Below, piece by piece: positions 30,389-46,881 of a stretch of DNA of 64,000 nt. The stretch spans positions 77,017-141,016 of the forward strand of contig NZ_JBQCIF010000015.1 in NCBI RefSeq assembly GCF_051953955.1, given 5' to 3'. The position numbers and the translations under genes are program-made. The stretch's first letter is position 1. Every line of letters starts with the position of its first letter. Under the pieces are notes generated by a model. It had not been told where the DNA came from. It searched no databases and worked only from the letters and a program-made list of their open reading frames with translations. This DNA comes from Trinickia sp. (GTDB lineage Bacteria > Pseudomonadota > Gammaproteobacteria > Burkholderiales > Burkholderiaceae).

Positions 30389-31218
30389 GCGCGTAACGCG
30401 TCTCCTGTGGCTGCGTCGGCGGGAAAAAAGGCCTCGATTGCGAGCTCGGAGAGCGTCACGTCGACAGGTGAGCCGAATACGGTCGTCGTGCTGAAGAACG
30501 ACAGCACCCCAATATCGGTGCGCAGCCGAAACGGCACGACGACGTCCGCGAGCGGTGCAGGCTCGCGACTCGGTTCGAGATCGGCGCCGCTGGGTGCCGG
30601 ATAGGCGGCCAACTCTTCGACGAGCGCCGCAAGCGTGGCGTCGCCACTGGCGTGTGCCTGGCGCTCGACTCTCTGAAGCGAATGCGCGCGCCAGCCGGCC
30701 CAATCCACGAGATGCGGCGCGAGCCCATCGGGGTGCAGCGAAAGACGCAGCACGTTGACGGGCGGTTCGAGCAATCGCGGATCGGCGCGTGCGACGAGCG
30801 GCGCGAGGGCACCGTTCGCGGCCACCATCGTCCAATGCCGATCGATCGCGAGGGCCGGATACGGCTCGTGTCCTTGCAGCACGAGTTGCACGGCGTCGCG
30901 CGCGGCATCGAGTTGCGGATCGGACAGCGTCCGCTCCGCGTAGAGCGGCGCGTAGCCGGCGGCAACGAGCAGCGCATTGCGCGCGCGCAGCGGCACGTCG
31001 AGTTGCTCAGCCAGATGGATGAGCATTTCTCGGCTCGGCTGGGCGCGGCCCGATTCGACGAAGCTCAAATGCCGCGTCGAGATCTGCGCTTCGGTGGCCA
31101 GCACGAGCTGGCTCATGCGTCGGCGCTGGCGCCATTCCCGCAGCAAATCGCCCACGGAGCGGCTCGCGCGTTGAGTGACGGGGGGCGCGGCGCGTGCTGG
31201 GGTAAAGGTCTGGTTCAT
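30319..31218 (-). CDS. MmyB-like XRE-family transcriptional regulator
   Basis: 'LLREWRQRRRMSQLVLATEAQISTRHLSFVESGRAQPSREMLIHLAEQLDVPLRARNALLVAAGY' is the XRE HTH plus MmyB-type extension. Its 3' end overlaps the convergent ACAD gene by about 70 nt. Confidence 0.8.
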   Translation of the reverse strand: MNQTFTPARAAPPVTQRASRSVGDLLREWRQRRRMSQLVLATEAQISTRHLSFVESGRAQPSREMLIHLAEQLDVPLRARNALLVAAGYAPLYAERTLSDPQLDAARDAVQLVLQGHEPYPALAIDRHWTMVAANGALAPLVARADPRLLEPPVNVLRLSLHPDGLAPHLVDWAGWRAHSLQRVERQAHASGDATLAALVEELAAYPAPSGADLEPSREPAPLADVVVPFRLRTDIGVLSFFSTTTVFGSPVDVTLSELAIEAFFPADAATGDALRAYREQAVASLTPSAVQGARPSAM

Positions 31219-31409
31219 GAAAGACGATCATAGCCAATCGCAGCGCTGTTTCCATTACCTCACACGTAATCGACGAGCGGCGCGAGTTGGCCGAAGCTTC
31301 GATCCAAGCGCTGAGCGGCTCCGATGCAAGAGACGGCGCCGATGATGCGCTTGAGTGTTGCGGCAGGTGCCGCCCAATCGATCAACTGGCTTTGGATTTG
31401 GAGAAAGTG

Positions 31410-31778
31410 ATGACTGCCCATCTTGAACTCGTCGACCGCTATTTTGCCGCTTGGAACGAAATGGATGCCGTGCGCCGGCGCGCGTTGATCGCGGACACTT
31501 GGGCCGAGGATGCGTCCTATGTCGATCCGCTGCTTGCGGGGAAGGGGCACGACGGCATCGACGCGATGATCGGTGCGGTGCACGAACGATTTCCGCAACA
31601 TCGATTTCGGTTGAATGCGGGAGCCGACGGATTCGGCAACTACGTTCGGTTTTCCTGGGATCTCGTGGCGCCAGGCGGGGAAGCGATCGTGAAAGGTTCG
31701 GATTTTGGGGTGATTGACGCGGCCGGCAGGTTCGCCAGCGTCACCGGGTTCTTGGACGCGGTGCCGCAGCCGGTATGA
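31410..31778 (+). CDS. SnoaL/NTF2-like fold protein
   Basis: ATG at 31410 after 'ggagaaag'. 'LVDRYFAAWNEMD…RRALIADTWAEDASYVDPL' is a typical SnoaL-like N-terminus. Confidence 0.65.
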   Translation: MTAHLELVDRYFAAWNEMDAVRRRALIADTWAEDASYVDPLLAGKGHDGIDAMIGAVHERFPQHRFRLNAGADGFGNYVRFSWDLVAPGGEAIVKGSDFGVIDAAGRFASVTGFLDAVPQPV

Positions 31779-31906
31779 GGTGAAGTCGATCGGGCGCGAA
31801 GTGGCACCCCCGGCAACAGCAGACGCCACACCGACCGCCGAAAGTACGCCTACGGCGTCCGCGCCATCCTTCCCAGCCCGAAGCCCGAGGCTTGCCGCGC
31901 ACCTGG

Positions 31907-32581
31907 TCAATCGGACCCGTACCTCGGCGACCTCGGACCATACAACAACCCGTTCGGCGGGCCGGCCGACAATAAACGGCGGCTGGTCAGCCCCGCGACG
32001 TCATGGGCTTCGTCCGTCAGCGAATGGGCAATCTGCTTGACCGCGGACTGCACGAGCATGCCGACAATTCCGAAACCACCCACGTTCACATTGGTGCCGA
32101 GTTCCTTGCCGGTCGCGTGGCCCGTGCCTTGCCATAGCACGTCGCCCGCCTTCAGGTCCACGAGCTTCGCCGATGCCGTCACGATCGTCGTGCTGTCGAT
32201 CACCTGATAGACGGAGCCGTACTGCGAGACCTTCGCGTACAGCGCGGCATCCGCGCCGAAGATCTCGCGCAGCTTCGCGGGCGGCACGCCCTGAATCTCG
32301 GCCGCGTTGGTCAGGCCGTTTTGCTTGAACGTCTCATCCATAACCGCGACTGGAACCACGTAATAGCCCGATTCGGCGAGTGGTAGCGTCATCTGTGACA
32401 ACATGCCGTAAGTGGCCGCGACGTCGGATGTTTCGTTGATAGGCGGCAACACGAGAATCGAGCGCGGCTGGCTCTTCTTGAAGGCCGTGTAGTCGGGGCG
32501 CGTGACGGTCGGCGCACAAGCGCTCAGCAGAGCAGCAATCGACAGCACTGACAGCAGCTTCAATGAAATGGTCTTGAACAT
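31907..32581 (-). CDS. DUF799 (GNA1162-like) lipoprotein
   Basis: Lipobox 'ALLSAC'. 'SILVLPPINETSDVAATYGMLSQMTLPLAESGYYVVPVAVMDETFKQNG' matches my memory of the DUF799 family. Third gene of a lipoprotein operon. Confidence 0.75.
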   Translation of the reverse strand: MFKTISLKLLSVLSIAALLSACAPTVTRPDYTAFKKSQPRSILVLPPINETSDVAATYGMLSQMTLPLAESGYYVVPVAVMDETFKQNGLTNAAEIQGVPPAKLREIFGADAALYAKVSQYGSVYQVIDSTTIVTASAKLVDLKAGDVLWQGTGHATGKELGTNVNVGGFGIVGMLVQSAVKQIAHSLTDEAHDVAGLTSRRLLSAGPPNGLLYGPRSPRYGSD

Positions 32582-32591
32582 GGCTGGCGTC

Positions 32592-32951
32592 TCACTCCTG
32601 AGTGGCTTGTTTCTTCTTCATCAGGAAGTCCATAAAGGCCGTCGACTCCGCAAACAGCTGTCTTTCAGCCTGCAGTTCCTGTTCGGCACGATGCTCATCC
32701 CCAACGCTCACGTAGAGCATGCCGAGATGCGCATGGAAACCCGGAGGCGTCTGATTGCCTTTCCCGCGGATTTCTTGCAGTGCCTTTTCAAGCGCGTCAA
32801 TCTGCTCCTGCGGTGACGTCTTTCCTTTGAAGTATTCGTATACCTGCGGCTGATAGGCGTTCCACTGATAGAGCGGCGGCGTAGTCGTCGTTGCACAGCC
32901 CGAAAACAGTAACGCAGCCGTCGTCGCCGGCAGCCAAATACCCTCTTTCAT
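32592..32951 (-). CDS. DUF4810-like small lipoprotein
   Basis: Lipobox 'LLFSGC'. 119 aa and helical/TPR-like ('…HAHLGMLYVSVGDEHRAEQELQAERQLF'). It sits between the CsgG-like and DUF799 genes, as is usual for this family. Confidence 0.65.
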   Translation of the reverse strand: MKEGIWLPATTAALLFSGCATTTTPPLYQWNAYQPQVYEYFKGKTSPQEQIDALEKALQEIRGKGNQTPPGFHAHLGMLYVSVGDEHRAEQELQAERQLFAESTAFMDFLMKKKQATQE

Positions 32952-32996
32952 CTTCTTTTACTCTCAGGTTATGTAGTAGAACGAATCGTATGGTGT

Positions 32997-33674
32997 CTAT
33001 TGCGCTGTTTTCAGCGCGCCCGCGTCGACCTGCTCGGCGAGATGGTTGACCGCTTGCTGAATCGCGAGGTCGAGCACTTTGCCGTTGAGCGTGGAGTCGT
33101 AGCTCGCGGTACCGCCGAAGCCGATGATTTCGCGATTGGAGAGGCTAAACTCGCCTGCTCCCTGGCTCGACGCGATCACTTCGGATGTGATTGTGTCGAC
33201 GATGTTCAAATTGACCTTCGCATACGCGACTTGTGTCTTACCGCGGCCGAGGATGCCGAACAGCTCATGATCACCGACGTCTCTGCGGCCGAACTCGGTC
33301 ACGTCGCCAGTGACGACATAATTCGCGCCTTTGACCGCCGGCGCCTTGTTCATGAAACCCGCTTCCTGCCTGATCTCCTCGAGATTCTCGCGATCGAGCA
33401 CGTTGAAGCGCCGGCTCTGCTGCAGGCGCGTAACGAGAATTGTCTTCGCCTGGCCACCGAGACGATCGATGCCATCGGAGAAGATGCCGCGCATGTAGCT
33501 CGAACGGTTATCGAACTTGCCGACAGCGATCGGGAGGGGCTTGCCCGCGTAGGGCTTCTGTGCGCTGCCGACGACAGGCACGTCGAGCGTGCGAGACGAT
33601 TCGGTTGCGCACGCGCTCAACCCGAGAGCGAGAACGGCTGCGGTTATAACTGGGTACTTTCCACGTCTACTCAT
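32997..33674 (-). CDS. CsgG/HfaB-family outer-membrane lipoprotein
   Basis: Lipobox 'ALGLSAC'. 'PIAVGKFDNRS…GGQAKTILVTRLQQSRRFNVLDRENLEEIRQE…' resembles the CsgG secretion-channel family. 'gaggaa' lies upstream of the ATG. Confidence 0.75.
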   Translation of the reverse strand: MSRRGKYPVITAAVLALGLSACATESSRTLDVPVVGSAQKPYAGKPLPIAVGKFDNRSSYMRGIFSDGIDRLGGQAKTILVTRLQQSRRFNVLDRENLEEIRQEAGFMNKAPAVKGANYVVTGDVTEFGRRDVGDHELFGILGRGKTQVAYAKVNLNIVDTITSEVIASSQGAGEFSLSNREIIGFGGTASYDSTLNGKVLDLAIQQAVNHLAEQVDAGALKTAQ

Positions 33675-33758
33675 CCCAAGTTCCTCGTTGGGTTAAAAAT
33701 GCTTTCTGTTATGGGCTAGCCGCGCCTGAATCAGGCGTGCCATCGGCGATTCCCTCAA

Positions 33759-33964
33759 TCACACGACACGCCCTATTGCCCGCCGTTGGGCTGTCGTATC
33801 GCACGCGGAGTACGCTTGCCGGCCGCCGGGCCGGCCATAGCCTTGTTGGAGCGAAGTACAAATCCAGGAATAGTCGAGCGTCAATCCATTTCGTTTGGCA
33901 CATGCTTCCTTGCGTCGATCGACGTCCTTTCTACCGAATGAAGCCGCCGATCAAACCGATCCGC
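33759..33964 (-). pseudogene. Orphan cdiA pretoxin/CT-junction fragment (frameshifted, truncated)
   Basis: It starts about 26 nt after the cdiI-candidate stop. It translates to ADRFDRRLHSVERTSID…, versus the parental ADRFNRQLAPVERASIDRRKEAYAKRNGLTL. A 4-nt deletion shifts the frame, and the corrected frame stops at 33759. Confidence 0.55.
33875..33964. repeat. Copy B of a 90-94-nt direct repeat (partner at 35108-35201 inside cdiA)
   Basis: Hand alignment gives about 77/90 identical positions plus one 4-nt gap. The ends are shared: cgagcgtcaatccatttcg… and …aaaccgatccgc. Confidence 0.85.
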
Positions 33965-33990
33965 CCGTTTTGTGGGATGACTGCGCATGG

Positions 33991-34215
33991 TCAAGAACGC
34001 CGCCCCATGCCCAGGCACGCAGCGAAGACAAATGCGCACATCACCCCTCCCAGAAGTAAGCCGTAGACAAGGATGCCCTTAGCATCCTGTCGGCTCCATT
34101 CATACGCAACGCCGTAAAATAGTTGTACGAGATACACAACAGAAATCTTTATCGACGCCACTCCCAGCAATGAAATAACTAGGGCATACACCGTGAGAAG
34201 TAGAGGCCGCGTCAC
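33991..34215 (-). CDS. cdiI: Candidate CdiI immunity protein (74 aa, two predicted TM helices)
   Basis: The GTG start overlaps the cdiA stop (GTGA). Two hydrophobic stretches are present: 'LLLTVYALVISLLGVASIKISVVYLV' and 'GILVYGLLLGGVMCAFVFAACLG'. GC is 45-47% in the two 60-nt lines I counted. Confidence 0.6.
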   Translation of the reverse strand: MTRPLLLTVYALVISLLGVASIKISVVYLVQLFYGVAYEWSRQDAKGILVYGLLLGGVMCAFVFAACLGMGRRS

Positions 34216-37200
34216 TTTTTCCCACCCTCACCGTTTCTGACATTATTGATTCCTGCGGCTCCGAATTCCGATCCAATGCTGCCACCAACCGAAGAACCGA
34301 TTGCTGGCACGTTGTTAGGCGTAAATAGCCTCAATCCAGATGATCCCGACCATTTTCCAACATCGGCCCAACCGAAACCGTTGATCGTCGGTTTCGTGAG
34401 TGATCCGACTCCAGCTTCGACCCCCTTGCCCACACCGTAACCGAACATTGAGCCCGCACCGCTTACAGCCCCACCGAGTACGACACTGTCGCTCTTTCCC
34501 TGCAAGAAGTTGTTGAGCGCCGTTGTTGTCGCGCCTCCGAGGATGTTGAGTCCCACGTTGCTAACGAGGCTGCGATAGATGGAGCCGGCGTAGCCAGTCC
34601 CGAACGCGCCGACTACGTCCACTGGATTGATTGTCCCATTCTGCATGTACTGCGCTCCCGCGTTGATCGTAGCTGTAATTACTCCACTACCGACCGACGA
34701 GGCCAGTGCGCTCGAACCGAGCGCACCGTTCGTGCTCAGGATCGGCGTTCCAGGCAATGCGGCAATCGGTCCGCCTACCGCTATCGTCGCCGCGCCAACT
34801 GCCGCCCCGATTGTGCCCTTCGTGTAGGCATCGCGATACGCCTGCTCGCGATTCACCGAATTCGCGATGTCTTGCGACCCCGGCACGTTCATGCCGGCGC
34901 CGTTCGCGTAATGCCCCGCGTACATACTCGGATTCGCCTTCTGATCAGGCGTCGCATAAAACATATAGCCGGGCCCGCTATTGCCATCAGCCGGGAGCAT
35001 TCCGCGTTCTTGACGCAAGAATGCCGCAGCGCGCTCATTCCATGGCCCGGGTGAGCCGTTCTGAACCATCAGATTCGCTTGTGTTAGAAGCTCCTGTTCC
35101 GCTTGTGCGAGCGTCAATCCATTTCGCTTGGCATACGCTTCCTTGCGTCGATCGATCGACGCCCTTTCCACCGGAGCCAACTGCCGGTTAAACCGATCCG
35201 CAGCAGCAGCCGTCAGCGCCCCCGTCGAGCCACCGACCAACGCGCCCGCGCCACCGGCCAACACGTTCGCGGTGACGTTACCAATGAGTTGATCGACGTT
35301 CGCGTTACCCGTCGGCCCCGCCTCCTTGATCGATCTCGCGAGCGCATCGAACTTCGGCGCGAGCTTAGCCGACATCCCCGCGCCCGCCGCTCCACCTACT
35401 GCGCCCAGTCCGCCGCCGGTCAATCCCCCCGTGAGCGCACCGCCCGCGATATGCAGCTTCCTCCGGTTCGTACCGCCCTCTGCCCAGCTTGCCGCCTCTT
35501 GCTGATATTGCACCTTCAGCTTCGGATCGGTTTCAGCCTTCGCCGCCGTGAGCGCTTCATCCCGCTTTTTCTCGGCATACTTCCCAACCTGCTTAGCAAC
35601 CGCTTCCGCCGCCGCCTGCGCCGCGTCGATCAAATCTGCTTGGTTGCTCAAGGTGGCCTGCAAATCCGGCAGTTGATCGACGATCCCGTTCAGGTTCGTC
35701 GCATCGCGGTTGAGCATCGCAATGTCTTGCTTTTGGTTGGCCTCATCGGTGATCGTGATGCCGCCCGCGCTTATCGCACTCCTCGTGAGCGCCTCACTGC
35801 TTCCGCGCTCGCTCACCGCCAGCGGCAGCGCGCCACCTGAGTTCTTGCCCGAGCTCGGCCCATGCGTCGCGTAGTTGCTGCCACCATCGCCGAAACCACC
35901 GCCCGCGCTGATCCCAACGCTGCGCGCGCTGTAACTTGAACTGTTTTGCACGTCCGAGAACGAGAGCGTGCCCGTCCTCAATCTGTTTTTATCTGGGTCC
36001 GCCGTGCTCGCGATATACGTCCCCTTCAAATCGGTGTTGCCCTTGACCGTAATGTCGAAACCGCCGTCGCCCACGGCAATGCCCGACTGCTCGCCTACAC
36101 CGGCGTAGTTTCCGCTTGCGCGACCACTGCGAGCGCTGAAGCTGGCGCTGCCTCCGCCCTGGCTCACGCTGAAGCCGCCGCCCACGCTGCTCTGGCGCGA
36201 GGCGCTGCGCACCGTGTCCTGCTCCGATGCGATATTCAAATCGCCGCCGATGTCCCCCATCACCCGCTTCGCGCTCACATTGGCGCCCACGATGTTCGTG
36301 TCGCCCCCGCTCTTGATCGTCACCGTGTTGCCCGCCTGAACATGCGTGTTGTTGTGCGTCACCGCATCGCTGTTCGCATCGCCCTTTGCCCGCGACATCG
36401 CAGCCGATACGCCCCAACCACTCGATCCAAACGACACACCGGCGCTCGCACTCGTCGACTCGTTCGTGCTGCGCGTCTTATCCGTATCGGTGCTGCTCAG
36501 CAAATTGACTCGATCGGTCGCTTGCAACAGCACGTCACCCGCCGTCACCGCCGAGCCCTCGATCGTCACGTTGCCTTGCCCCGCCGCCTTCTCGCCCGTC
36601 GCGATGAATGCAGCGCGTCCACCGGCCCTCACCGTGCTGCCGCTCTGCCGCGTACTGTCCTCGGTGAACGTCGTCTTGCTGCGCGACGCACCGAAGCTCA
36701 GTTCGATCTTCGCTTCAGGCTTGCCATTGCCGTTCAAGGGACCGCCCATCGCCCCCGCGGCGCCCGCCAGATCGGCCACGCCGCCGGCTGCCGCCATCGC
36801 ATGCAGCGCCGCCGCGCGCCCATCCCCACTGGCTGCCGCCCCCCGTGCCTGCCGATTGACGTTCTGGATCGCATCGATCACGGGCGACTTCACCGCCAAG
36901 GTGAAGCCCGAGCTTTTCATCTCGTGCGTTTCCTCATGATGGCGCGCCGTGCCCGACGCCTGCACCTTGACCTCCTTGGCGATGCCCGTCACGTCTTGCG
37001 CCGCTAGAATGTCCGAACCCGTCACATGCAGGGTATTGCCGGCTTGCAGCACGACGCTGCCGCCCGTGCTGCCGATCAAGCTGCCCCGTGCGCCCTTCAT
37101 AGTGTCGCGGCTCGAATCGCTCGTTTGATGCGTGCCGTAAGAGATCCCCGCGCCGGCGCTGCCCAAGCCCGACTTCTTGACCTCCTTGTAGTGGTATTCG

Positions 37201-40200
37201 CTCGATGCCGTTTGCGCCGTCGTCACCCTCAAGTCATGACCGGCTTGAAGCGTCACGTCGCCCGTTCCCGCGATCGTCGCGGCCTCTGCCGTCAGGTCGT
37301 TGCCGGCCGCAACGCTGACCGTGTCGCCCGAGAACGTCGTGCCGATCGCATCGGTGTAACTGCTCGCGTCGACCGTATGTGTCGATTTCGACGAGAGCAA
37401 CCCGCGCTCGCTGCTCGCCTGCTCGTCATACGCGCTCGCGCTTTGCTCACCGGCCCGCAGGTTCACGTCGCGCCCCGCGACCGCACCGAGCGCCTGTTGC
37501 GCACTGACGCTTGCCGCCGTCGCGTTCAAATCCCGCCCGGCGACGATCCCGATGCGCCCGCCCGATGTGATGGCCGTGCCCGTATCGATCGATGCGCTGC
37601 GCACCGTTCGGTTCTTCTCGTCCCACTGCACCTGGTCTTCGCGGCTCTGGCGAATGGCGCCCAAGCTCACGTCTCGCGCAGCCGATAGCGATACATCGCC
37701 GCTCGTATCGATCCGGGCGGCATCCGCATTCAGATCGCGCCCGGCTTGCACCGCGAGCGTTCCGGCGTTGATTGCCGCCACGCGATCGATGACGGTGGCC
37801 GATCCGTTCGCCGTCACTGCCGAGCTCGTCGTGCTCGATAGGTTCACATCGCGCCCCGCGCTCAGGCTCACTGCATCGCCTTGAATCAGCCCGCCCAGAT
37901 TGTGAAGATCCTGTTTCGCCTTGGCGCGTACCCTGGAGCCCGCCATCGTCCCCACGTTCGTGATCGAATCGGCCGTGATGATCGTCACGCGTCGGCTCGC
38001 GATCGTGCCTGTGTTCGCCAATGCGCCCTTGTTGCGCAGCTCGACGCTTTCTCCCGCAACGATCGATCCCGTGCCGGTCACGTCCGCCGCATGCGCGCGC
38101 ATATATACCTGCGGCACGAGCACTGCCTGTTGCGTGCCGTCGGACAACGTCACCTCCTTGTTCACCAGCCAGACGATGTCGTCCGTGAGCGCCGCCATCT
38201 GCGCATCGGTGAGCGCCGTGCCGACGTTCATCTGGAAGCGTTCAGCCGCCTTCACGCCATTGGCCATCAACGCCTGGTATTGCGTCTGGTTGTCGGTGTA
38301 GTCGCCGATGAAGCGCTGCCCAGTCGCCTCGACGATCTGCCGCTGGACTAATTGCTGCTCATAAAAGCCGTCGCCCAAGCGCTTTTGCACCGAGCCGGGG
38401 TTTCTACCGAGCGCCGCCATCATCGTCTCGCTCGAGAGCCATTGCCGTCGGTTCGTGAAGCGCGGGTCCGTCTCGATCAGATAACGGCTGCCCGGGTCCG
38501 TCACCACTTGATAGAGCGCATTGCTCGGCAGCTTCACGTTCGGCTGCACCGTGCGGATTTCGATCGGGCCGAGCTTCGCTCGCGCCTGTGCGGTCGCGGC
38601 GGCACCCGGCACCCCGATGCCCGATACGCCCTGCGCAGCCAACGCCTCGGCCAAGACGCGATTAACCGGCGCCTGGTTTGCCGGTGCGACCGAAGCAATA
38701 GGCAAATCGATTTCCCGTGCGGGCATGGGCGCGACATAGGGTTTGGCGTCGAACTTGCGCTCATCGCCACGGAATCTGCGTCCCGATACCCAGGTCGTGA
38801 TCGCGCGGCCCGATGCCGTGAATGTCTCGACGCCCTTGGGCTGACTGTTATCCTGGATGGCGTCGTTCAGGTAGGCTTGGCCGCCCGCCAAGATCTGACT
38901 TTTGTCATTGACGCCCGAACTCGCCTTGATGTCGACGGTTCGCCCCGCCGTGATCCTGCCTGGCTGGCTCGCGATGACGACATCCTTGGTGGACGTTACA
39001 TTGACGTCGTAGGTCGTCCAGCGCGGAGCGATCCGGCTCATCACGTCATTGTTGTAGTCGGACACCGCTCGATTGAGCGCGTCATACGACTGCGTGAGCT
39101 TGCCGTACCACTGGTTGAACGGCCGGCAAAGCTCAGCCGCTGACGTCAAGCACGACTGGCGTTGCGGCATGGCGTTGCCTGTTTGCCGCTCACTGGGCTC
39201 GCTCACGGACGGCACGTTCAGCAAGTACCAGTCGCTGCCTAGCTTGCGCGTGCCCACCCAAGGCGCGCTCACCGTCATCTCGCCTCGCTTGATATAAGAA
39301 GGCTCCGGCGGCGGGGGCGGCGGGGCGACGCCAAACTTCGCCCACATGTCCTCGGGCACCGTCCGGTATGCGCCCGCTTCGCCCGCCCGGTCAGCATCGA
39401 CCTTGACGCCGAAGGGATTGTTCGATGAGCGCGGCGTTGCGCGGTAATGCACCTTCTCGATTTGTCCCGCGTTGCCGTTCATCGTGTACTTCGCGTAGTC
39501 GGCAAACGGATAGGTGCTCGACGGTAGCAGCAATCCCTTCTGATCGTCGTCCAGCGCCCACTCGTAATCGGCGCCGGACTTGGCCTCATGCCCACTGCGG
39601 TGATAGAACCGAACATCGGACGGCTCGAGGCGCTCGGTTGCGCCCGGAACGGTGTGCCAAATCTGCCGCCCCGAATCGGTGGTCACCTTTTGCGTTTGGA
39701 AGTTCGCGTTCACGTTCTCAAAGCGCTCGGCCGCGATCTTGACGTCGCCGCCGGTATCGATCGACGCGCCTTCGTTCCTGAAACGATCCGACAAGACCTT
39801 CGAGGCCCGGCCATCCGCATCGAGGCTGCGCCCCGCCCGAAGGTCGTTCGATGCATAGATCAGGCTCTCGCTGCGATTCTCGATCACCGTTGCACCGATA
39901 TCGACGTCGCCACGCGATGCGATCACCCCGCCCACGCCTTGCGCATTCGCTTGGTTGCGCATGAGCTGGCCACCGATCGAGACCGAATCGCCGTAAATGC
40001 GCCCGTGGTTCGCAACCGTCTCGGCCGCTTCCACACGCGTGGCACCGCCGTCGATCAGGCCTTCGTTAGAGAGCGACTGCCGGGCGAGAACTCGCGTTCC
40101 GTGCGTGCCCGCGATATCCCCGCCTGCCTGGTTATCGATCCGCTCACCGGAGACGCTTGCGACGTTGCCGGCCGTCATCGCGCCGCCGTTATCCACATTG

Positions 40201-42107
40201 CCTTGCGCGCGGGCCTCGAGATCGTGTCCGGCGTGCATCGCGCCGCGCGTGTTGTCGATCGCGGCGCCTGCGATCGTCACGTCTGCGTCGCCGGCGATCT
40301 GGCCGGCGATATTCGATATGTCGCCGGCACCTTCGAGCGTCAGCGCCTCGTGCGACAGGATTGCGCCTCGATCGTTCGTGACCGATTGCGCCGACACGGC
40401 TGTCGTATGCGAGGACGATATGACGCCGCCGGCGTTCTCGAGCGCACCCGCCGCCAGCGTCACCCCTTTGCCGATCACCCGGCCACCGGCCTGGCTGCCC
40501 TCGGCTGCTCGGTTATCGAATAGGCCACCTTGCATATCAAGCTTTGCTGCATCACCCGATTGAATCACGCCCGAGCGGTTCGAAACCGATCGCGCGTTGA
40601 TGCTGGCTTTGGCCACGGCATCCAGCGCGCCAGCGTCGTTGACGAACACGCCATGGGATCGCAGCGTCGCGTTCAACGCGGCTGCCGTGATTGCGCGCAT
40701 CGAAATCGACTGTTCGCCCGCCACATTCAACGCGCTGGCCGCGAACACCTGGCTGCCGTCGAGCGACACGCTCGTGCCGCTCACGTTGACGTTGTCGCCC
40801 GCTGCAAGCGAGCCGCTGCTGGCAATGCGTTCCCCTGTGAGCGTGACGCTACCCGGCCCCGAAGGCAGATCGCGACCGTTCACACCCGCCATGACGACGC
40901 CGCGGCTCGTCAGATCGCGCGCGCTCAGATCGGCGTTGGAGCGGGCCGCCACCACACCGTCATTGCGCAGCGTGTCCACCGCGCTCAGGCGGGCCGTTTG
41001 AAGACTCGTGATCGTCCCCTCGTTCTTGATGGTCGGCGCGTCGATGCGTATGGAGCCGGCCGCCTGGATGCGCCCTGCCGGCTCGATGGTGACGTCCCCG
41101 TTCGCCGACACTTCGATCGTGCCCGTCAGCGAATCGAGCTCACCCGAATGCCGCACGCCGACACCCGCTTCCGTACCGATCAGAAACACGCTATTGGCGT
41201 ACATGCTGCCCAGCGCATGCACATCGATCGCAACCGTGGGCCTCTCGCCTTCGCCAGCCTGCCTCATGACGATGCCGTCGGCATAGCCGACTTGGTTCGC
41301 GCCGGCCACCGCGTGAACGGAATCGGCCCATATTTGCGCGTTGATCCGCTCGGCCCGTGCGATCAAATCCAACACGCTGCCGCGTGCGTCGAGCCCCCCG
41401 CCACCCACGCTGAGCCTGCCGCGCGTCACGTCGAACCCGGCCAGCGACCCATCCGCATTCAAGCGCGTGCGGCCGGTTGCCAGCGAAACGCGCGGGACGT
41501 TGATGAAGCCACAGCCTGCGCAGGCGATGCCGGCTGGGTTCGCGATCACGAGGTTGGCACGGTTGCCGGCGATTTCGGTCATGCCGAGCAATCGCGTTGG
41601 ATTGCCCGACGTCACTTGATTGATGATCACGCGTGCGGGCGAATTGCCCATCAACGGGTTGCCCTGCACCCAGCCAGCGATTTGCGTTTGCGCACTTCTG
41701 GGGGTGTTGACGATGACGGCCCCCTTGGTGCCGACGTTGTAGTGCGTGAAGTTGTTCAGCGACACACCGGCTCTGTTCGGCGCCACGATGTTCACCAACG
41801 GCACGCCCGACGACGAGACCCCGACCACCGGGTGGTGCGAGCTGCTGCGATCAGGCGTCATTGACAGCGTGGCTTGCGCCGCCACACTAGAGGGCTGCAT
41901 GCCGAGCGCGCAAAGCGCGGCGAAGGCGCTTGCGCGTGCGGCACGCCACGGCGATATTCCGGATCGATGCGATGCAGGTGCGCCAGCGCTTCTCGCGCTT
42001 CGCGCGAGCGAGCGCGTGCCGCGCCGGCGTGACGATGCACACTCGCTCGCAGGCACCCACAGGCCGCGCGAAGCGCTGAACACCAATCGGTAGAGTCCGG
42101 AATTCAC
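34212..42107 (-). CDS. cdiA: CdiA/TpsA filamentous-haemagglutinin-type exoprotein with a polymorphic C-terminal toxin domain
   Basis: 2631 aa with a GTG start 9 nt after 'gaggaa'.
- Extended signal peptide region: 'MNSGLYRLVFSASRGLWVPASE'.
- TPS domain: 'LVNIVAPNRAGVSLNNFTHYNVG…VIINQVTSGNPTRLLG…NLVIANPAGIACAGCGFIN'.
- Long degenerate FHA repeats.
- Conserved block: 'LPSNALYQV…DPRFTNRRQWLSS…KRLGDGFYEQ'.
- Gly-rich variable C-terminus. Confidence 0.9.
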   Translation of the reverse strand: MNSGLYRLVFSASRGLWVPASECASSRRRGTRSLARSARSAGAPASHRSGISPWRAARASAFAALCALGMQPSSVAAQATLSMTPDRSSSHHPVVGVSSSGVPLVNIVAPNRAGVSLNNFTHYNVGTKGAVIVNTPRSAQTQIAGWVQGNPLMGNSPARVIINQVTSGNPTRLLGMTEIAGNRANLVIANPAGIACAGCGFINVPRVSLATGRTRLNADGSLAGFDVTRGRLSVGGGGLDARGSVLDLIARAERINAQIWADSVHAVAGANQVGYADGIVMRQAGEGERPTVAIDVHALGSMYANSVFLIGTEAGVGVRHSGELDSLTGTIEVSANGDVTIEPAGRIQAAGSIRIDAPTIKNEGTITSLQTARLSAVDTLRNDGVVAARSNADLSARDLTSRGVVMAGVNGRDLPSGPGSVTLTGERIASSGSLAAGDNVNVSGTSVSLDGSQVFAASALNVAGEQSISMRAITAAALNATLRSHGVFVNDAGALDAVAKASINARSVSNRSGVIQSGDAAKLDMQGGLFDNRAAEGSQAGGRVIGKGVTLAAGALENAGGVISSSHTTAVSAQSVTNDRGAILSHEALTLEGAGDISNIAGQIAGDADVTIAGAAIDNTRGAMHAGHDLEARAQGNVDNGGAMTAGNVASVSGERIDNQAGGDIAGTHGTRVLARQSLSNEGLIDGGATRVEAAETVANHGRIYGDSVSIGGQLMRNQANAQGVGGVIASRGDVDIGATVIENRSESLIYASNDLRAGRSLDADGRASKVLSDRFRNEGASIDTGGDVKIAAERFENVNANFQTQKVTTDSGRQIWHTVPGATERLEPSDVRFYHRSGHEAKSGADYEWALDDDQKGLLLPSSTYPFADYAKYTMNGNAGQIEKVHYRATPRSSNNPFGVKVDADRAGEAGAYRTVPEDMWAKFGVAPPPPPPEPSYIKRGEMTVSAPWVGTRKLGSDWYLLNVPSVSEPSERQTGNAMPQRQSCLTSAAELCRPFNQWYGKLTQSYDALNRAVSDYNNDVMSRIAPRWTTYDVNVTSTKDVVIASQPGRITAGRTVDIKASSGVNDKSQILAGGQAYLNDAIQDNSQPKGVETFTASGRAITTWVSGRRFRGDERKFDAKPYVAPMPAREIDLPIASVAPANQAPVNRVLAEALAAQGVSGIGVPGAAATAQARAKLGPIEIRTVQPNVKLPSNALYQVVTDPGSRYLIETDPRFTNRRQWLSSETMMAALGRNPGSVQKRLGDGFYEQQLVQRQIVEATGQRFIGDYTDNQTQYQALMANGVKAAERFQMNVGTALTDAQMAALTDDIVWLVNKEVTLSDGTQQAVLVPQVYMRAHAADVTGTGSIVAGESVELRNKGALANTGTIASRRVTIITADSITNVGTMAGSRVRAKAKQDLHNLGGLIQGDAVSLSAGRDVNLSSTTSSAVTANGSATVIDRVAAINAGTLAVQAGRDLNADAARIDTSGDVSLSAARDVSLGAIRQSREDQVQWDEKNRTVRSASIDTGTAITSGGRIGIVAGRDLNATAASVSAQQALGAVAGRDVNLRAGEQSASAYDEQASSERGLLSSKSTHTVDASSYTDAIGTTFSGDTVSVAAGNDLTAEAATIAGTGDVTLQAGHDLRVTTAQTASSEYHYKEVKKSGLGSAGAGISYGTHQTSDSSRDTMKGARGSLIGSTGGSVVLQAGNTLHVTGSDILAAQDVTGIAKEVKVQASGTARHHEETHEMKSSGFTLAVKSPVIDAIQNVNRQARGAAASGDGRAAALHAMAAAGGVADLAGAAGAMGGPLNGNGKPEAKIELSFGASRSKTTFTEDSTRQSGSTVRAGGRAAFIATGEKAAGQGNVTIEGSAVTAGDVLLQATDRVNLLSSTDTDKTRSTNESTSASAGVSFGSSGWGVSAAMSRAKGDANSDAVTHNNTHVQAGNTVTIKSGGDTNIVGANVSAKRVMGDIGGDLNIASEQDTVRSASRQSSVGGGFSVSQGGGSASFSARSGRASGNYAGVGEQSGIAVGDGGFDITVKGNTDLKGTYIASTADPDKNRLRTGTLSFSDVQNSSSYSARSVGISAGGGFGDGGSNYATHGPSSGKNSGGALPLAVSERGSSEALTRSAISAGGITITDEANQKQDIAMLNRDATNLNGIVDQLPDLQATLSNQADLIDAAQAAAEAVAKQVGKYAEKKRDEALTAAKAETDPKLKVQYQQEAASWAEGGTNRRKLHIAGGALTGGLTGGGLGAVGGAAGAGMSAKLAPKFDALARSIKEAGPTGNANVDQLIGNVTANVLAGGAGALVGGSTGALTAAAADRFNRQLAPVERASIDRRKEAYAKRNGLTLAQAEQELLTQANLMVQNGSPGPWNERAAAFLRQERGMLPADGNSGPGYMFYATPDQKANPSMYAGHYANGAGMNVPGSQDIANSVNREQAYRDAYTKGTIGAAVGAATIAVGGPIAALPGTPILSTNGALGSSALASSVGSGVITATINAGAQYMQNGTINPVDVVGAFGTGYAGSIYRSLVSNVGLNILGGATTTALNNFLQGKSDSVVLGGAVSGAGSMFGYGVGKGVEAGVGSLTKPTINGFGWADVGKWSGSSGLRLFTPNNVPAIGSSVGGSIGSEFGAAGINNVRNGEGGKK
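35108..35201. repeat. Copy A of the direct repeat (encodes the ADRFN…RNGLTL junction of cdiA)
   Basis: See copy B. This region encodes the boundary between the conserved CdiA body and the variable C-terminal domain. Confidence 0.85.
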
Positions 42108-42113
42108 TGCCGT

Positions 42114-43058
42114 TTATTCCTCGAGGTCAGCCAATACCGGCGAAGCGACGCTGGCGGCCGCTTCTTGCTCGACCTGCTGCAACGCGGGTCGGGCGCAACT
42201 GAACACGGCAATACCGTTGATCAATCCAACGGTCGGCGCGTGCACGCCATACGACACGACGAGATAGGGCTTGGATGCATCCGGCCCGAAGAAGGTCGTG
42301 GCCAAGGAAGATCGGGTTGCCCCCGTCAAAACCATCGCTCCCAGGGAGACATCGTCGGTGAACGTTTGATCGTGATCGCTGCCAATGGAATAGCGCAGCT
42401 TCAAGGATGCAACGTTGCGGGATTGGCCAAACGGATCGGTGCCTTCCGTCAGATCGGCCGAAGCGCTAGCCAGGGCGCCGGGGGCCGTGTTGCCGTCACT
42501 CGCGGTCGGGCGCGTTGCGGCTGCCAATTCACAGCGCATCCCCTCGCCGACCGTCACAGGCTCGGAGAGCGGTGCGCCGAGCGCCCAAACCCGACCTTGA
42601 TTGACGTTGTATGAATACCCTGCCGAATCGCTGCCCGCCGTCCAGCGCCCAATGGCGAAGTGCCCATTGCCCCCGATATCGGTAACGATCCCCCGGGAAA
42701 GGCTGAGCGCCCCTCCATCGAACGGCAATGTCGTATAGGCGCCCGGTGAGATCGCTTGCAACACGGACGGGTTCTCTTCGGTTCCGATCCGGGCCTTGCC
42801 TTGGGGCATCGAACCATCGGCACTCCAAGTCACCGGTGGGTGCAGCACCTTCACGGTAGTCAATTCGCTCGACAGGGGCGTTGCCTTCCCTTCCGCCGCG
42901 ATGTGCGCAGTTGCCGCGCTCTCCTGCGCCTTAGCGGGTGCCGGGTTAGCCTCACCGCCGCCCCCGCCTCCGCACGCCGCGAGCCCGAACGCCGATAACA
43001 CGGCAGCGGTCGCCGCCGCCAGCTTGAAGAACATGCGCTGCTTGTTCCTATCTTCCAT
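42114..43058 (-). CDS. Lipoprotein of unknown function encoded between cdiB and cdiA
   Basis: Signal peptide plus lipobox 'AVLSAFGLAAC', followed by a poly-Gly linker (CGGGGGGE). The remainder looks beta-rich. The stop is 6 nt before the cdiA start, and the last codons (GAGGAATAA) supply the cdiA SD. The start is ATG 43058 or 43034. Confidence 0.7.
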   Translation of the reverse strand: MEDRNKQRMFFKLAAATAAVLSAFGLAACGGGGGGEANPAPAKAQESAATAHIAAEGKATPLSSELTTVKVLHPPVTWSADGSMPQGKARIGTEENPSVLQAISPGAYTTLPFDGGALSLSRGIVTDIGGNGHFAIGRWTAGSDSAGYSYNVNQGRVWALGAPLSEPVTVGEGMRCELAAATRPTASDGNTAPGALASASADLTEGTDPFGQSRNVASLKLRYSIGSDHDQTFTDDVSLGAMVLTGATRSSLATTFFGPDASKPYLVVSYGVHAPTVGLINGIAVFSCARPALQQVEQEAAASVASPVLADLEE

Positions 43059-43144
43059 ACGTCTATCGCCTTTATTGCCACTTGGTTAAGGGACGGTGCC
43101 GTGTACGCCAAGCGCACGAAGCGAGCACCGGTTGATGAATCCGC

Positions 43145-44884
43145 CTAAAACAGCGAACTGATTTGAAATAAGAACGTGGGTGAACCGCTTACCCCTACCG
43201 GCTTGGATAAGGGCCAGCCCACCGAGACGTCGTAGTGGATCGATGCTGCCAAGACGCTTTTCGACGTGACTTGCCCCCGCATTCCGAGCACGGCGCCCAC
43301 CAACGTCTGCCCCGTGAGAAACTCGGCCGCCGGGCCGCGAACCCGGCCGGCATCGATGCCGCCATAGATGGCCTGAGTGCCGATTTCCGTCGGCACGTAC
43401 CAATCCAATTCGTTTGAAATGACCCAGCCGCTCTCGGCGGCCAGCGTCGTTTGTTGGTCGAAGCCGCGGACCGAATAACGTGTGCCAATCGCGAAATAGT
43501 TGGCTGGCGTGAGCGGCGTTCGTGCGTTTTGCGTATTCCAATCGAATCGGTACGAGAACGGCTGATCGCCTACCCTGAAGGGCACCTGCATTCCGGCGCT
43601 CGCCAACGCGACTTCTGTCTTGCCGTCGAAGTCGGGTTCGCCCAATACCATGCCGATGTTTCTGGACCATCCAGGCACCGACGCGCGCCACGCCAGCCCA
43701 CCGGTGAACATGACGTCGCCGACGTATTGACGATGAGACACGCCCAACTCGTAACCGAGGACGTCGCGCGTCTGGGCCGGCAACTCGACGCCGTCGTAGG
43801 TATTGCCGTTGATTTCGCGATACAGATCGCCGCGCACTTCGGTTTGCGCCTGGGCATTGCGAAAGACGACGGCAGACAAGCCGGCCTGGAGCCTCGATTG
43901 CACGCCGCTGTAGAGCACGGGGCCTTCGAATCCCGGAACAGACTGCTTGTACCTCGACCGACTCGCGCTGGCCGCAAGCAACGCGTAGCCGATCGGCACG
44001 TTGTAGTTGGCGAGGACGGACTGGTTCCCCTCGCCGGGAGCGCCAAAGTTCGCGTTGGTCGTGCCGGCGAGCTGCAGTTGGTCGTATAGATGGAGCGGCG
44101 AATCGTAGGTGAGCGATCCGAATAGCGATGTCTTGCCCGTGGCATTCAAGCCTGCGTTGTCGACTCCGACGATCGCGTGCCAGCGCTTGCCGGTTCCCGG
44201 ACGCAACACGAGTTCGGACTCTCCCGGATTCGCGCCCGGAGCGACATCGAACATCGCATCGGCTTGGGACTGCAGGCGGCGCACATTCTCCAGCCCTTGA
44301 TCGATGTCTCGCTGATTCAACAACGCGCGGGCGGAGGTGGGCAACGCCATGCGCAACGAGCCGATCGCCGGTTCGCCAGTTCGAACGCGACTGACGAGCC
44401 CCGGCAACAAACGCAGCGTCAGCCTTCCGGATTGCAGCGACTGCGCGGGCGCGAGCAAACGCGACGTGACGTACCCGCGCTCGATCAGTGCCCTATTGGC
44501 GGCATCCTGAATCCGAGCGAGCGCGGCCTTGCCGACGCATTGGCCCGCTATCGGCTGTAGGAAGCGCGCAAGCCACTGGAACTCGCTCTCTTCGAGCACG
44601 ACTTCCCTGATCGGGAAACAGGGTGTCTCGACCGGCAGGCTCGCCACGCTTTTCAGCAGTGCCGGTTCGCCAGCCGGCGATAGGACCCTCGGCTGAGGGT
44701 TCAGTGCTTTCGCCGCTTCGATCTGCTGCTGTTGGAGACGCTGGATTTGAGCGCCCGGCGGTCCTTCCGCGGGCGAAGCGACGTGCGCACTCGCCACCGC
44801 GCTCGCGCACGCGCAAGCGATCAGTGCGAATGCTTGCCGCCAAGTAAGCGCGCCCTTACGGCGAAATACGCAGATGGAGTGCAA
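43145..44884 (-). CDS. cdiB: TpsB/CdiB outer-membrane transporter (ShlB/FhaC/HecB family)
   Basis: 579 aa with a signal peptide ('FALIACACASAVASAHV'). POTRA-like 'CVGKAALARIQDAANRALIERGYVTSRLLAPAQSLQSGRLTLRLLPG'. The C-terminal beta-barrel ends '…TFLFQISSLF'. Confidence 0.9.
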   Translation of the reverse strand: MHSICVFRRKGALTWRQAFALIACACASAVASAHVASPAEGPPGAQIQRLQQQQIEAAKALNPQPRVLSPAGEPALLKSVASLPVETPCFPIREVVLEESEFQWLARFLQPIAGQCVGKAALARIQDAANRALIERGYVTSRLLAPAQSLQSGRLTLRLLPGLVSRVRTGEPAIGSLRMALPTSARALLNQRDIDQGLENVRRLQSQADAMFDVAPGANPGESELVLRPGTGKRWHAIVGVDNAGLNATGKTSLFGSLTYDSPLHLYDQLQLAGTTNANFGAPGEGNQSVLANYNVPIGYALLAASASRSRYKQSVPGFEGPVLYSGVQSRLQAGLSAVVFRNAQAQTEVRGDLYREINGNTYDGVELPAQTRDVLGYELGVSHRQYVGDVMFTGGLAWRASVPGWSRNIGMVLGEPDFDGKTEVALASAGMQVPFRVGDQPFSYRFDWNTQNARTPLTPANYFAIGTRYSVRGFDQQTTLAAESGWVISNELDWYVPTEIGTQAIYGGIDAGRVRGPAAEFLTGQTLVGAVLGMRGQVTSKSVLAASIHYDVSVGWPLSKPVGVSGSPTFLFQISSLF

Positions 44885-44994
44885 AGCCGTTCACGTTCGA
44901 CCGAAAATGCGAACGTTACGTGCTTGCGAAAGCGCTCAAAACAAAGCAACCGAAAATTCAGACCAACGGAAAGGCCGCTAGCCCCTGAACGCAT

Positions 44995-45483
44995 TCAATC
45001 CCCCACCGAGATCGTCAGCGTCTCCTTGATCTCTTCCATGACGACATAGCTCTTGGACTGCACGGCGCCGGGCAGCTGCAGCAGGATGTCGCCGAGCAGC
45101 TTGCGGTAGTCGGCCATCTCGCCGATGCGCGCCTTGATGAGATAGTCGAATTCCCCTGAAACGAGATGGCATTCGAGCACTTCGGAGATCTTATTCACTT
45201 CGCGCCGGAACTGATCGAACATGTTGCCGCTCTTGTTGCCGAGCGTGATCTCGACGAACACGAGCAGCGCGGCGCCAAGCTGCGCCGGATCGACCCGCGC
45301 GTAATAACCGGTGATGACCTGGTCGCGCTCCATGCGCTTCACGCGCTCGATGCACGGCGTCACGGTCAGCCCCACCCGTTCGGCCAGGTCCTTCATCGCG
45401 ATGCGGCCGTCCTCCTGCAACACCTTCAATATCTTGCGATCGAGCTTGTCGAGCTTACGAACCGGTTGACGTTCTGTTCTCAT
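44995..45483 (-). CDS. lrp: Leucine-responsive regulatory protein (Lrp/AsnC family)
   Basis: 'LDKLDRKILKVLQEDGRIAMKDLAERVGLTVTPCIERVKRMERDQVITGY' plus a RAM domain. I prefer the ATG at 45483 (MRTERQ…). Confidence 0.9.
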   Translation of the reverse strand: MRTERQPVRKLDKLDRKILKVLQEDGRIAMKDLAERVGLTVTPCIERVKRMERDQVITGYYARVDPAQLGAALLVFVEITLGNKSGNMFDQFRREVNKISEVLECHLVSGEFDYLIKARIGEMADYRKLLGDILLQLPGAVQSKSYVVMEEIKETLTISVGD

Positions 45484-45594
45484 CGCGCATCCATCGTTTT
45501 TAAACCAAAAATCCAAAAATTACAGGAACAAAAACTGCTTTTGTAGCAATAGTATAGCGACATCAACTGGACTTATCGGTGTTTGGGAGCAACC
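45484..45594. promoter_or_regulatory. AT-rich divergent lrp/dadA control region
   Basis: A 111-nt, A/T-rich gap (…tttttaaaccaaaaatccaaaaattacaggaacaaaaactgcttttgtagcaatagtatagc…) between divergent lrp and dadA. Lrp-type control of dadA is well known. No individual site was called. Confidence 0.4.
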
Positions 45595-46881
45595 ATGCGA
45601 GTCATCGTTCTGGGTAGCGGCGTTGTCGGCGTAACGAGTGCCTATTACCTGGCGCGCGCGGGGCATGAAGTCACGGTCGTCGATCGCGCAGCGGGTCCGG
45701 CGCTCGAAACGAGCTTCGCGAACGCCGGCCAGATCTCGCCCGGCTATGCCTCGCCGTGGGCGGCTCCCGGCGTGCCGCTCAAAGCAGTCAAGTGGATGTT
45801 CCAAAAGCACGCGCCTCTCGCAATCCGTCTGGACGGCACTCAGTTCCAGTTGCGCTGGATGTGGCAGATGTTGCAAAACTGCACCGCCGAGCGCTATGCC
45901 GTCAATAAAGGCCGCATGGTGCGCCTCGCCGAATACAGCCGCGACTGTTTGCAGGCATTGCGCGCCGATACCGGCATCCAATACGAAGGCCGTACGGGTG
46001 GCACGCTGCAGGTGTTTCGCACGCAGCAGCAACTCGACGGCGCACAAAAAGACATCGCCGTGCTGAAGGAAGCCAACGTCGCGCACGAACTGTTGAGCGC
46101 CGCCGAACTCGTGCGGGCTGAGCCGGCACTCGCAGCCGTCTCTCACAAGCTCACGGGCGGCCTGCGACTGCCGGGCGACGAAACGGGCGACTGCCAACTG
46201 TTCACCACGCGCCTGGCAGCGCTCGCCGAATCGCTCGGCGTGACGTTCCGCTTCAATACGCCGATCGACGCGCTCGAAATGGCCGGCGGCCGAATCGCCG
46301 GCGTGCGTTGCGGCTCGGACACGCTGCGCGCCGACGCTGTCGTGGTAGCGCTCGGGTCCTACTCCACGCAGTTGTTGTCGAGCATCGTGAAGATTCCCGT
46401 CTATCCGCTCAAGGGTTATTCGATCACGGCACCGATCGTCGATGCGGCCAAGGCCCCTGTGTCGACCGTGCTCGACGAAACGTACAAGATCGCGATCACG
46501 CGCTTCGACGATCGCATTCGCGTCGGCGGCATGGCCGAAATCGTCGGCTTCGACAAGAAGCTGCGCCAGGCGCGTCGCGAGACGCTCGAAATGTGCGTCA
46601 ACGATCTGTTCCCCGGCGGCGGCGATACGTCGCAGGCATCGTTCTGGACGGGGCTACGCCCGATGACGCCCGACGGCACGCCGGTGGTCGGCCGCACGCC
46701 GGTGTCGAATCTGTTTTTGAACACGGGGCACGGCACGCTCGGCTGGACGATGTCGTGCGGTTCAGGCCAGCTGCTCGCCGATCTCATCTCGGGCCGCCGG
46801 CCGGCGATCCAAGCGGACGATCTCTCGGTTCATCGCTACCTCGGCGAACTCGGCCGCACCCCGCAACCCGCTTACGCGTAA
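45595..46881 (+). CDS. dadA: D-amino-acid dehydrogenase
   Basis: '[31 protein letters not shown]' FAD fold. Full-length similarity to DadA (…[14 protein letters not shown]…[11 protein letters not shown]…). Confidence 0.95.

Follow-up and report, generated by a model that had tools for sequence, protein, structure and literature searches.

What kind of CDI (contact-dependent growth inhibition) locus carries a lipoprotein gene between those of its transporter and its exoprotein, and what might such a lipoprotein do there? The question is raised by a 64,000-nucleotide stretch of DNA (contig NZ_JBQCIF010000015.1, positions 77,017 to 141,016; here called the window, with all positions counted from its first letter), in which four packed minus-strand genes at 33991-44884 follow the order cdiB-lipoprotein-cdiA-cdiI. 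CDI loci have so far been sorted as cdiBAI or bcpAIOB, with cdiC and bcpO as accessory genes; the layout described here is a third, conserved one in Burkholderiaceae. An earlier, sequence-only reading of the window had proposed a two-partner secretion (TPS) locus of CDI type with a new accessory component, and comparison with more than 20 orthologous loci upholds both proposals. The locus is a conserved variant of the CDI locus with a new accessory lipoprotein, the latter from an unannotated family conserved in more than 20 loci, and it recurs in Trinickia, Burkholderia and Paraburkholderia. Whether this layout had already been catalogued was checked, and no description was found in the searchable literature.

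Genomic signatures of CDI

The open reading frame (ORF) list and its translations confirm the four genes with the coordinates first assigned to them, including the GTGA overlap between the last two (lengths in amino acids, aa):

43145-44884, minus strand: cdiB, TpsB/Omp85-type outer-membrane transporter, a 579-aa ORF from TTG
42114-43058, minus strand: accessory lipoprotein gene, 314 aa, family without annotation (lipobox LAAC, Cys29)
34212-42107, minus strand: cdiA, 2631-aa TpsA exoprotein (GTG start, TGA stop)
33991-34215, minus strand: cdiI, predicted 74-aa two-transmembrane immunity protein (GTG start within the GTGA overlap)

The true start of cdiB may lie a few codons inside the TTG ORF. 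Spacing is tight throughout: the gap between cdiB and the lipoprotein gene is 86 nucleotides (nt), the lipoprotein stop codon is 6 nt from the GTG of cdiA, with GAGGA just upstream of this start, and the cdiA TGA and cdiI GTG overlap (-4 nt). By this spacing the four genes form an operon-like block. A scan for promoters and terminators was uninformative, with no promoters found and fewer terminator-like sites than in shuffled sequences.

The orthologous loci were gathered in three ways, via the lipoprotein, via CdiB and via the C-terminus of CdiA. Word-index protein searches with the C-terminal toxin region (CT) and the pre-toxin region as queries returned short proteins only, and counts of full-length carriers are taken from the fetched loci. 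Comparison centres on three features at the 3′ end of cdiA and beyond:

35178-35198, minus strand: DRFNRQL boundary motif (aa 2304-2310), dividing the conserved body from the variable toxin
34215-35198, minus strand: CdiA-CT (aa 2304-2631), with a charged helical N-terminal part and a Gly-rich hydrophobic helical C-terminal part (by composition and model)
33875-33964, minus strand: relic of the 5′ end of cdiA-CT (ADRFDRRLHSVERTSIDARK...), frame-broken and truncated

In every orthologue the CdiA body and pre-toxin region are 58-76% identical to those of the window up to DRFNRQL, a motif that is invariant in 11 proteins (CdiA of the window and the 10 orthologues read to their stop codon). Among these 10, mean pairwise identity falls from 0.6-0.8 before residue 2304 to ~0.3 just after it, in keeping with the divergent C-terminus noticed at the outset. 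The contrary case, a conserved and non-polymorphic C-terminus, was checked and does not apply, as at least six unrelated CT families lie beyond the motif in the orthologues. The CT family of the window is also present in two of the orthologous loci (L011 and L022), and the CT of another DRFNRQL-type orthologue (L007) has a Peptidase_C39-like domain. CTs of L007 and L017 have their first ~110 residues in common and differ in the remainder, which is the usual modularity of entry domain and toxin domain.

Directly after each cdiA lies a small ORF, usually with a 4-nt overlap; loci of one CT family have similar ORFs here, and loci of different families unrelated ones. Orphan CT/immunity modules begin exactly at DRFNRQL in L014 (nt 14802) and L015 (nt 19914), and L043 contains a further orphan CT module. 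The relic in the window is identical to cdiA codons 2303-2333 at 77 of 90 nt, has one 4-nt gap and ends prematurely; local alignment scores it at 104, compared with 24.9 ± 2.5 (maximum 35) for 100 shuffles. Recognised toxin domains (Ntox22, Ntox43, CdiA_C and DUF6883) are also carried by Burkholderia fragments of LYN type, which match the window at 39-51% identity over the pre-toxin region. At the level of comparative genomics, these are the defining signatures of CDI, and the locus is very probably a functional-looking CDI (type Vb secretion) operon, cdiB-lipoprotein-cdiA-cdiI.

Architecture of CdiB and CdiA

Pfam searches substantiate the ShlB/FhaC-type transporter and the exoprotein with ESPR, TPS and FHA regions that the sequence-only reading had recognised, with profile matches well above anything due to chance. 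The cdiB product matches ShlB (E 1.7e-68), POTRA_2 (4e-15) and POTRA_3 (3e-8) and is 62-75% identical to the transporter of the orthologous loci; a TpsB protein with POTRA domains and an Omp85-type barrel, encoded next to an exoprotein gene, is a feature of CDI. CdiA matches ESPR (5e-8), TPS (7e-46) and Fil_haemagg_2 (1.5e-45), and Fil_haemagg at a permissive threshold. Its domain order is canonical (ESPR signal, TPS domain, FHA-1 repeats, Tyr/Pro-rich centre, FHA-2 repeats, pre-toxin region) and includes the following segments:

41088-41858, minus strand: TPS secretion domain, aa 84-340 (Pfam PF05860, E 7e-46)
38208-39707, minus strand: central region without repeats, rich in Tyr, Pro and Trp by composition, aa ~801-1300 (PPPPPP at aa 929)
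36186-36692, minus strand: FHA-2 repeat, best Pfam stretch, aa 1806-1974 (PF13332, E 1.5e-45)
35199-35810, minus strand: pre-toxin region, aa ~2100-2303, Gly/Ala-rich (58-76% identity in orthologues)

The CdiA body is conserved from end to end (mean pairwise identity 0.5-0.8), and orthologues vary in length from 2610 to 3226 aa, with this variation restricted to the FHA-1 repeats. The central region contains 20 Tyr, 35 Pro and 9 Trp per 500 aa, residues that are almost missing from the adjoining repeats, and conservation of the body is lowest within it, at 0.40 for aa 901-975 and 0.49 for aa 1126-1200. From its position, and by analogy with E. coli CdiA, this segment is a candidate receptor-binding/YP region.

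An exoprotein of this build could also act on eukaryotic hosts or on surfaces rather than on other bacteria, as a cytolysin of the ShlA/HpmA type or an FHA-type adhesin, with the small downstream ORF incidental. The best solved relatives of the TPS domain are HpmA (HpmA265, 1e-35) and FHA (Fha30, 1e-27), and some fragments in databases bear the name 'hemolysin' or 'filamentous hemagglutinin'. However, the C-termini are polymorphic behind an invariant motif, each C-terminal family comes with its own small downstream ORF, there are orphan modules, and polymorphic-toxin domains are recognised on homologous pre-toxin regions; no such trait would be expected of ShlA or FHA. Such a cytolysin or adhesin is highly improbable here, and ShlA/FHA-type function was rejected on account of the polymorphic C-termini.

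Chromosomal setting and host

The CDI locus is flanked upstream by lrp and dadA and downstream by a CsgG/DUF4810/GNA1162-type lipoprotein operon and a gene for an MmyB-type regulator. DadA and Lrp of the window are 92-96% identical to proteins of Trinickia species and thus point to a host that would be Trinickia or a close relative, not Burkholderia proper. The host family is that of bcpAIOB.

Across Trinickia-group genomes (window 30319-46881 against L008, L014-L020, L056 and L058) the lrp/dadA flank retains 92-96% protein identity, and for the CDI genes enclosed by these conserved flanks identity is just 53-73%. By this comparison, the CDI locus is a hypervariable island whose chromosomal site is fixed in the Trinickia group. 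G+C content falls from ~0.64 to 0.56-0.57 across cdiA-CT and cdiI. The operon directly downstream (31907-33674, minus strand) consists of three lipoprotein genes, CsgG-like, DUF4810 and GNA1162-like/DUF799, with a G+C content of 0.57-0.59 versus a window average of ~0.64. It is missing at the equivalent site in Trinickia soli, and may belong with the CDI locus to one variable island.

The toxin/immunity pair

The N-terminal ~125 residues of the CT are helical and 21.6% charged, and the remaining ~200 residues have 21.7% Gly, 7.9% charged residues and many small-xxx-small motifs. An AlphaFold2 (AF2) model is all-alpha, with five to six long helices in the C-terminal part, at a predicted local distance difference test (pLDDT) score of 57, which is low confidence. 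CdiI has two hydrophobic segments within its 74 aa by hydropathy.

The pair had been expected to be new, an expectation that the searches do not bear out. For the CT, 65 homologues were retrieved, none of them with a Pfam family; they are from Burkholderia, Paraburkholderia, Mycetohabitans, Pandoraea, Herbaspirillum and Collimonas. A homologous domain (47% identity) ends a 3092-aa BcpA on Burkholderia gladioli plasmid pls1, in a locus of A-I-B order, and the 71-aa ORF after it is 40% identical to CdiI of the window (E 8e-14). In an orphan pair at an A-I-B-order locus of Burkholderia multivorans the CT is 36% and the CdiI 42% identical to the window proteins, and an 873-kb replicon of Burkholderia stagnalis YJ-2 encodes an A-I-B-order BcpA of the same length as that of B. 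gladioli and with the same CT family. The family also aligns (hhalign probability 97.5%, E 5e-12) with an orphan CT that is delimited by VENN, lies on a plasmid of Enterobacter asburiae and is followed by a 77-aa two-helix ORF; none of 5,426 E. coli genomes gave a match when searched at DNA level with this related cassette. On these comparisons the toxin/immunity pair is a member of an existing, widely exchanged, unannotated family. Toxin cassettes shared with DRFNRQL loci of A-I-B order, and found behind VENN in Enterobacter, speak of exchange across boundary motifs. The pair itself adds little, and the interest of the locus lies mainly in the lipoprotein.

Orphan CT and immunity cassettes of this toxin family are found in two unrelated hosts, Paraburkholderia hayleyella (L012:4924-11292) and the plasmid of E. 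asburiae (L054:4279-10254), in both cases directly downstream of a gene pair encoding a ~1020-aa primase (Zn-ribbon/Toprim) and a tyrosine recombinase. The unit in L012 is duplicated. This primase/recombinase unit may be a mobile element carrying CDI cassettes.

CDI ionophores of the CT-EC93 type are accompanied by a small hydrophobic CdiI, and relatives have been reported in Burkholderiales (Halvorsen et al. 2024, PMC11630599). The window pair is like them in its very small, hydrophobic immunity protein and strong divergence within the family (CT ~60% identical, CdiI ~40%), and perhaps also in a two-part CT, with an entry part and a putative membrane part that would be helical with a glycine zipper, although the AF2 model is too weak for a five-helix bundle to be made out. 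It is unlike them in its boundary, DRFNRQL rather than VENN. The likeness is one of described properties, which makes the pair a putative member of this class, and the only link made by sequence is to the VENN-delimited Enterobacter orphan. On balance, the CT may well insert in the inner membrane of the target cell and dissipate the membrane potential, i.e. act as an ionophore.

The accessory lipoprotein: family and predicted fold

The lipobox LAAC with Cys29 is invariant in 45 homologues, with Gly at +2. C176 and C288 are likewise invariant among lipoprotein homologues, and the motifs AIGRWT, NQG and ATRPT..DGN are conserved. The family yielded 59 matches in a word-index search and 187 in an exhaustive profile search, while Pfam, NCBIfam and PDB sequence searches with the lipoprotein returned signal-peptide noise only, with no family or solved relative. 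The mature protein starts with a Gly/Ala/Pro-rich linker of ~25 residues, followed by an all-beta domain (AF2, pLDDT 86). Best match of the model in a Foldseek search of the PDB is TbpB (E 1e-3, probability 0.99, template-modelling (TM) score 0.2-0.3), followed by lipocalins, and the resemblance of the predicted fold to these proteins is weak. With TbpB-type lipoproteins, which consist of a handle and an eight-stranded barrel, it has in common an N-terminal lipid anchor with a flexible linker and an all-beta predicted fold, but there is no sequence similarity and TM is just 0.21-0.30. No Slam (DUF560) translocon gene is present among the ten flanking ORFs scanned.

The central module of the lipoprotein, ~100 aa long (GRW..NQG..ATxPT..DG..PG), is repeated two to five times in unannotated proteins of ~640-2100 aa (P0181, P0184-P0187, P0193 and P0201), some of them from sphingomonads (Qipengyuania, Sphingomonas antarctica), which suggests an undescribed beta-domain family.

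Distribution and divergence of the lipoprotein

More than 20 loci have a close homologue (at least 46% identity) in the slot that separates cdiB from cdiA; they come from Trinickia, Burkholderia, Paraburkholderia and metagenomes. The arrangement cdiB-lipoprotein-cdiA is also found at other chromosomal sites (L007, beside a prophage, and L060). Where the context of a close homologue could be read, all but two (L023 and T. soli) lie between cdiB and cdiA. In L023 (2732-5739; metagenome-assembled genome of an uncultured Burkholderia) a truncated cdiB is followed by a CT-like ORF of the window toxin family and then by the lipoprotein gene, an order that could be a real rearrangement or an assembly artefact. 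T. soli GP25-8 (L020:9911-10786) has an intact solo lipoprotein gene, 58% identical, between lrp and the gene for an MmyB-type regulator; no remnants of cdiB, cdiA or cdiI were found at this site, where relatives carry the full locus. In three alike Burkholderia pseudomultivorans assemblies (L004:10972-12654, L005 and L006) the lipoprotein gene is followed by a remnant cdiA of 552-560 aa, in which ~100 N-terminal residues are fused straight to the FHA-2/pre-toxin end and most of the filament is deleted.

A scan seeded with CdiB, and hence unbiased regarding the lipoprotein, gave five loci with the lipoprotein and two related metagenomic loci, L050 and L052 (CdiB 58-64% identical), without it. 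In these two, cdiA comes directly after cdiB, and both contigs end before any immunity gene becomes visible. Together with the T. soli solo copy, these loci indicate that the lipoprotein is not obligatory in this CDI lineage.

Distant homologues (at most 41% identity) stand alone, in Cupriavidus, Caballeronia and Paraburkholderia as well as on plasmids of some Burkholderia strains. They are carried by 23 plasmids, mostly of Cupriavidus and Burkholderia, 17 of which are conjugative; on pMOL28 (L044:6734-7555) the solo homologue is convergent with type IV pilus 'adhesin' and major pilin genes. Divergence of the lipoprotein correlates at most moderately with that of CdiA segments (0.24-0.59), the value for the central region (r 0.58) being confounded by phylogeny.

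Possible roles of the lipoprotein

In the proposed mechanism, CdiB, an Omp85-type barrel with two POTRA domains, would export the CdiA filament via the TPS domain, as expected of its family. The last 328 residues of CdiA, past DRFNRQL, are an exchangeable toxin module, as comparison of the orthologues shows; its charged helical part would serve as 'entry' part, and its Gly-rich hydrophobic helical part would most likely insert in the target inner membrane. CdiI, as a two-helix membrane protein, would protect sibling cells, consistent with its co-variation with the toxin. The lipoprotein would be anchored in the outer membrane through its ~25-residue flexible linker and would present a disulphide-bearing all-beta binding domain. 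As it occurs with every toxin type, it cannot be a toxin-specific immunity protein, and its point of action must be either the cell surface or the conserved machinery, CdiB or the body of CdiA.

The reading favoured, though only tentatively, is a role in cis, in which the lipoprotein would assist export, arrest or presentation of CdiA by a logic such as that of BcpO; in its favour are the close coupling of the gene to cdiA, its movement together with cdiB and cdiA, and BcpO as a precedent. Several findings weigh against a functional CDI operon with such a cis-acting component. Lipoprotein-less relatives and fast evolution count against the cis role itself: the existence of two related cdiB-cdiA loci without the lipoprotein and the persistence of a solo copy in T. 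soli fit poorly with a core biogenesis factor, as does identity to Trinickia-group alleles of only 53-61% for the lipoprotein, compared with 66-71% for CdiB and 92-96% for DadA. Two orthologous cdiA genes are broken, by a stop codon in L007 and by a frameshift in L011, and that of B. pseudomultivorans is an internally deleted 560-aa remnant, some copies thus decaying. The structure model of the CT (pLDDT 57) is also weak.

The same solo copy, intact at the lrp/MmyB-regulator site of its relatives' full locus, would be less puzzling if the lipoprotein served, whatever the toxin, in exclusion or self-protection, by keeping CdiA of this lineage from docking on cells that carry the lipoprotein or from crossing their outer membrane, comparable in logic to the surface-exclusion lipoproteins of conjugative plasmids and worth keeping without toxin genes. 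Its occurrence with every toxin type, distant solo homologues on largely conjugative plasmids (that of pMOL28 beside type IV pilus genes), evolution as fast as that of the putative receptor-binding part of CdiA and a fold weakly like binding lipoproteins such as TbpB agree with this. Surface exposure is not supported, however, no Slam-like translocon gene lies among the scanned neighbour genes, the 6-nt coupling to cdiA suggests co-production with the exoprotein, there is no known precedent in CDI, and the correlation with the CdiA central region is just moderate and phylogeny-confounded; an exclusion factor is possible but rather doubtful. Alternatively, the gene might be a passenger, brought by a mobile element between cdiB and cdiA in one ancestor and hitch-hiking since, as loci L050 and L052, the solo copy and a wider family unlinked to TPS genes would allow. 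Against this, more than 20 diverged loci, of three genera and in at least three chromosomal contexts, keep the gene intact with its position and orientation unchanged, while cdiA sometimes decays, and its Cys residues and core motifs are invariant; this origin is unlikely.

The cis role, in export, arrest or presentation of CdiA, is the preferred reading. A more speculative proposal is that the lipoprotein adds a new layer to CDI, as a toxin-independent outer-membrane exclusion or recognition factor, drawn from a lipoprotein family of conjugative plasmids, that would decide which cells this CdiA lineage docks on or enters; a cell could then keep it without the rest of the locus, as an 'orphan shield', and the T. 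soli copy might be such a case. As a candidate third accessory protein of CDI, its function could inform how CdiA export is arrested and resumed, and also how producers avoid engaging their own kin.

Comparison with known CDI systems

Burkholderia-type CDI is encoded by bcpAIOB (Anderson et al. 2012, PMC3415462), and the only accessory genes named in that paper and in a 2022 review are bcpO and cdiC. In class IV loci (cdiBCAI), CdiC is a HlyC-like lysine acyltransferase (PMC8510554, PMC9086364). The window lipoprotein gene occupies the same slot as cdiC, between cdiB and cdiA, and its product was held from the outset to be unlike CdiC. This is borne out: CdiC is a small cytosolic acyltransferase, whereas the window protein has a signal peptide with a lipobox and an all-beta model. 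Its identity with CdiC was rejected on that model and on the lack of any acyltransferase family match.

The order transporter, exoprotein, immunity protein (B-(lipoprotein)-A-I) is that of E. coli cdiBAI, as the sequence-only reading had it. Also in common are the layout of ESPR signal, TPS domain, FHA-1 repeats, central region, FHA-2 repeats, pre-toxin region and CT, and the presence of orphan CT modules downstream; the additional gene between cdiB and cdiA sets the window apart. Ancestry of 'E. coli type' does not follow and was rejected: neither a VENN motif nor a PT-VENN/DUF637 domain was found in CdiA of the window, even at E ≤ 10 in Pfam, and its pre-toxin region is Burkholderia-like. 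As to descent, E. coli likeness is, on these comparisons, confined to gene order.

The published generalisation is that a species carries one CDI layout or the other (2012 paper and 2022 review). In B. stagnalis YJ-2, L007 (cdiB-lipoprotein-cdiA) is on CP156685 and L055 (an A-I-B bcp locus) on CP156687; cdiA of L007 encodes the Peptidase_C39-like toxin and has an in-frame TAG at L007 nt 17929-17931. From the consecutive accessions, both layouts appear to be present in this one strain, which runs against the generalisation.

Gene order in the window differs from that of bcpAIOB, as first noted, with the transporter first (B-lipoprotein-A-I versus A-I-O-B). CdiB is only 30% and the TPS domain 38% identical to the Bcp proteins of B. 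multivorans. The lipoprotein (314 aa, between B and A) is distinguished by size and position from BcpO (81-172 aa, between I and B), although a lipoprotein accessory gene is common to both as a concept. The two systems share a host family and a pool of toxin/immunity cassettes, and resemble each other at the C-terminal end of the exoprotein: the FHA-2 region of the window is 58% identical to that of B. multivorans BcpA, and the pre-toxin region 44-46% identical to that of the same protein and 39-51% to fragments of LYN type. With the pre-toxin region as query, Burkholderia fragments were retrieved, some with DRFNRQL and others with NADLYN or VQLYN followed by Ntox22, Ntox43, CdiA_C or DUF6883, and DRFNRQL is itself found in loci of A-I-B order (an insertion sequence-disrupted B. 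multivorans locus and B. gladioli plasmid pls1). The literal boundary motif Nx(E/Q)LYN is not present in CdiA of the window; its columns in the alignment are filled by a homologous variant, AADRFN, so that DRFN corresponds to (D/Q)LYN, with the final Asn invariant. Given low identity to Bcp in CdiB and the TPS domain versus high identity in the FHA-2 region, the window system is best described, as far as these alignments go, as a TPS lineage of its own, with the C-terminal delivery end (FHA-2/pre-toxin) and the cassette pool in common with BcpA.

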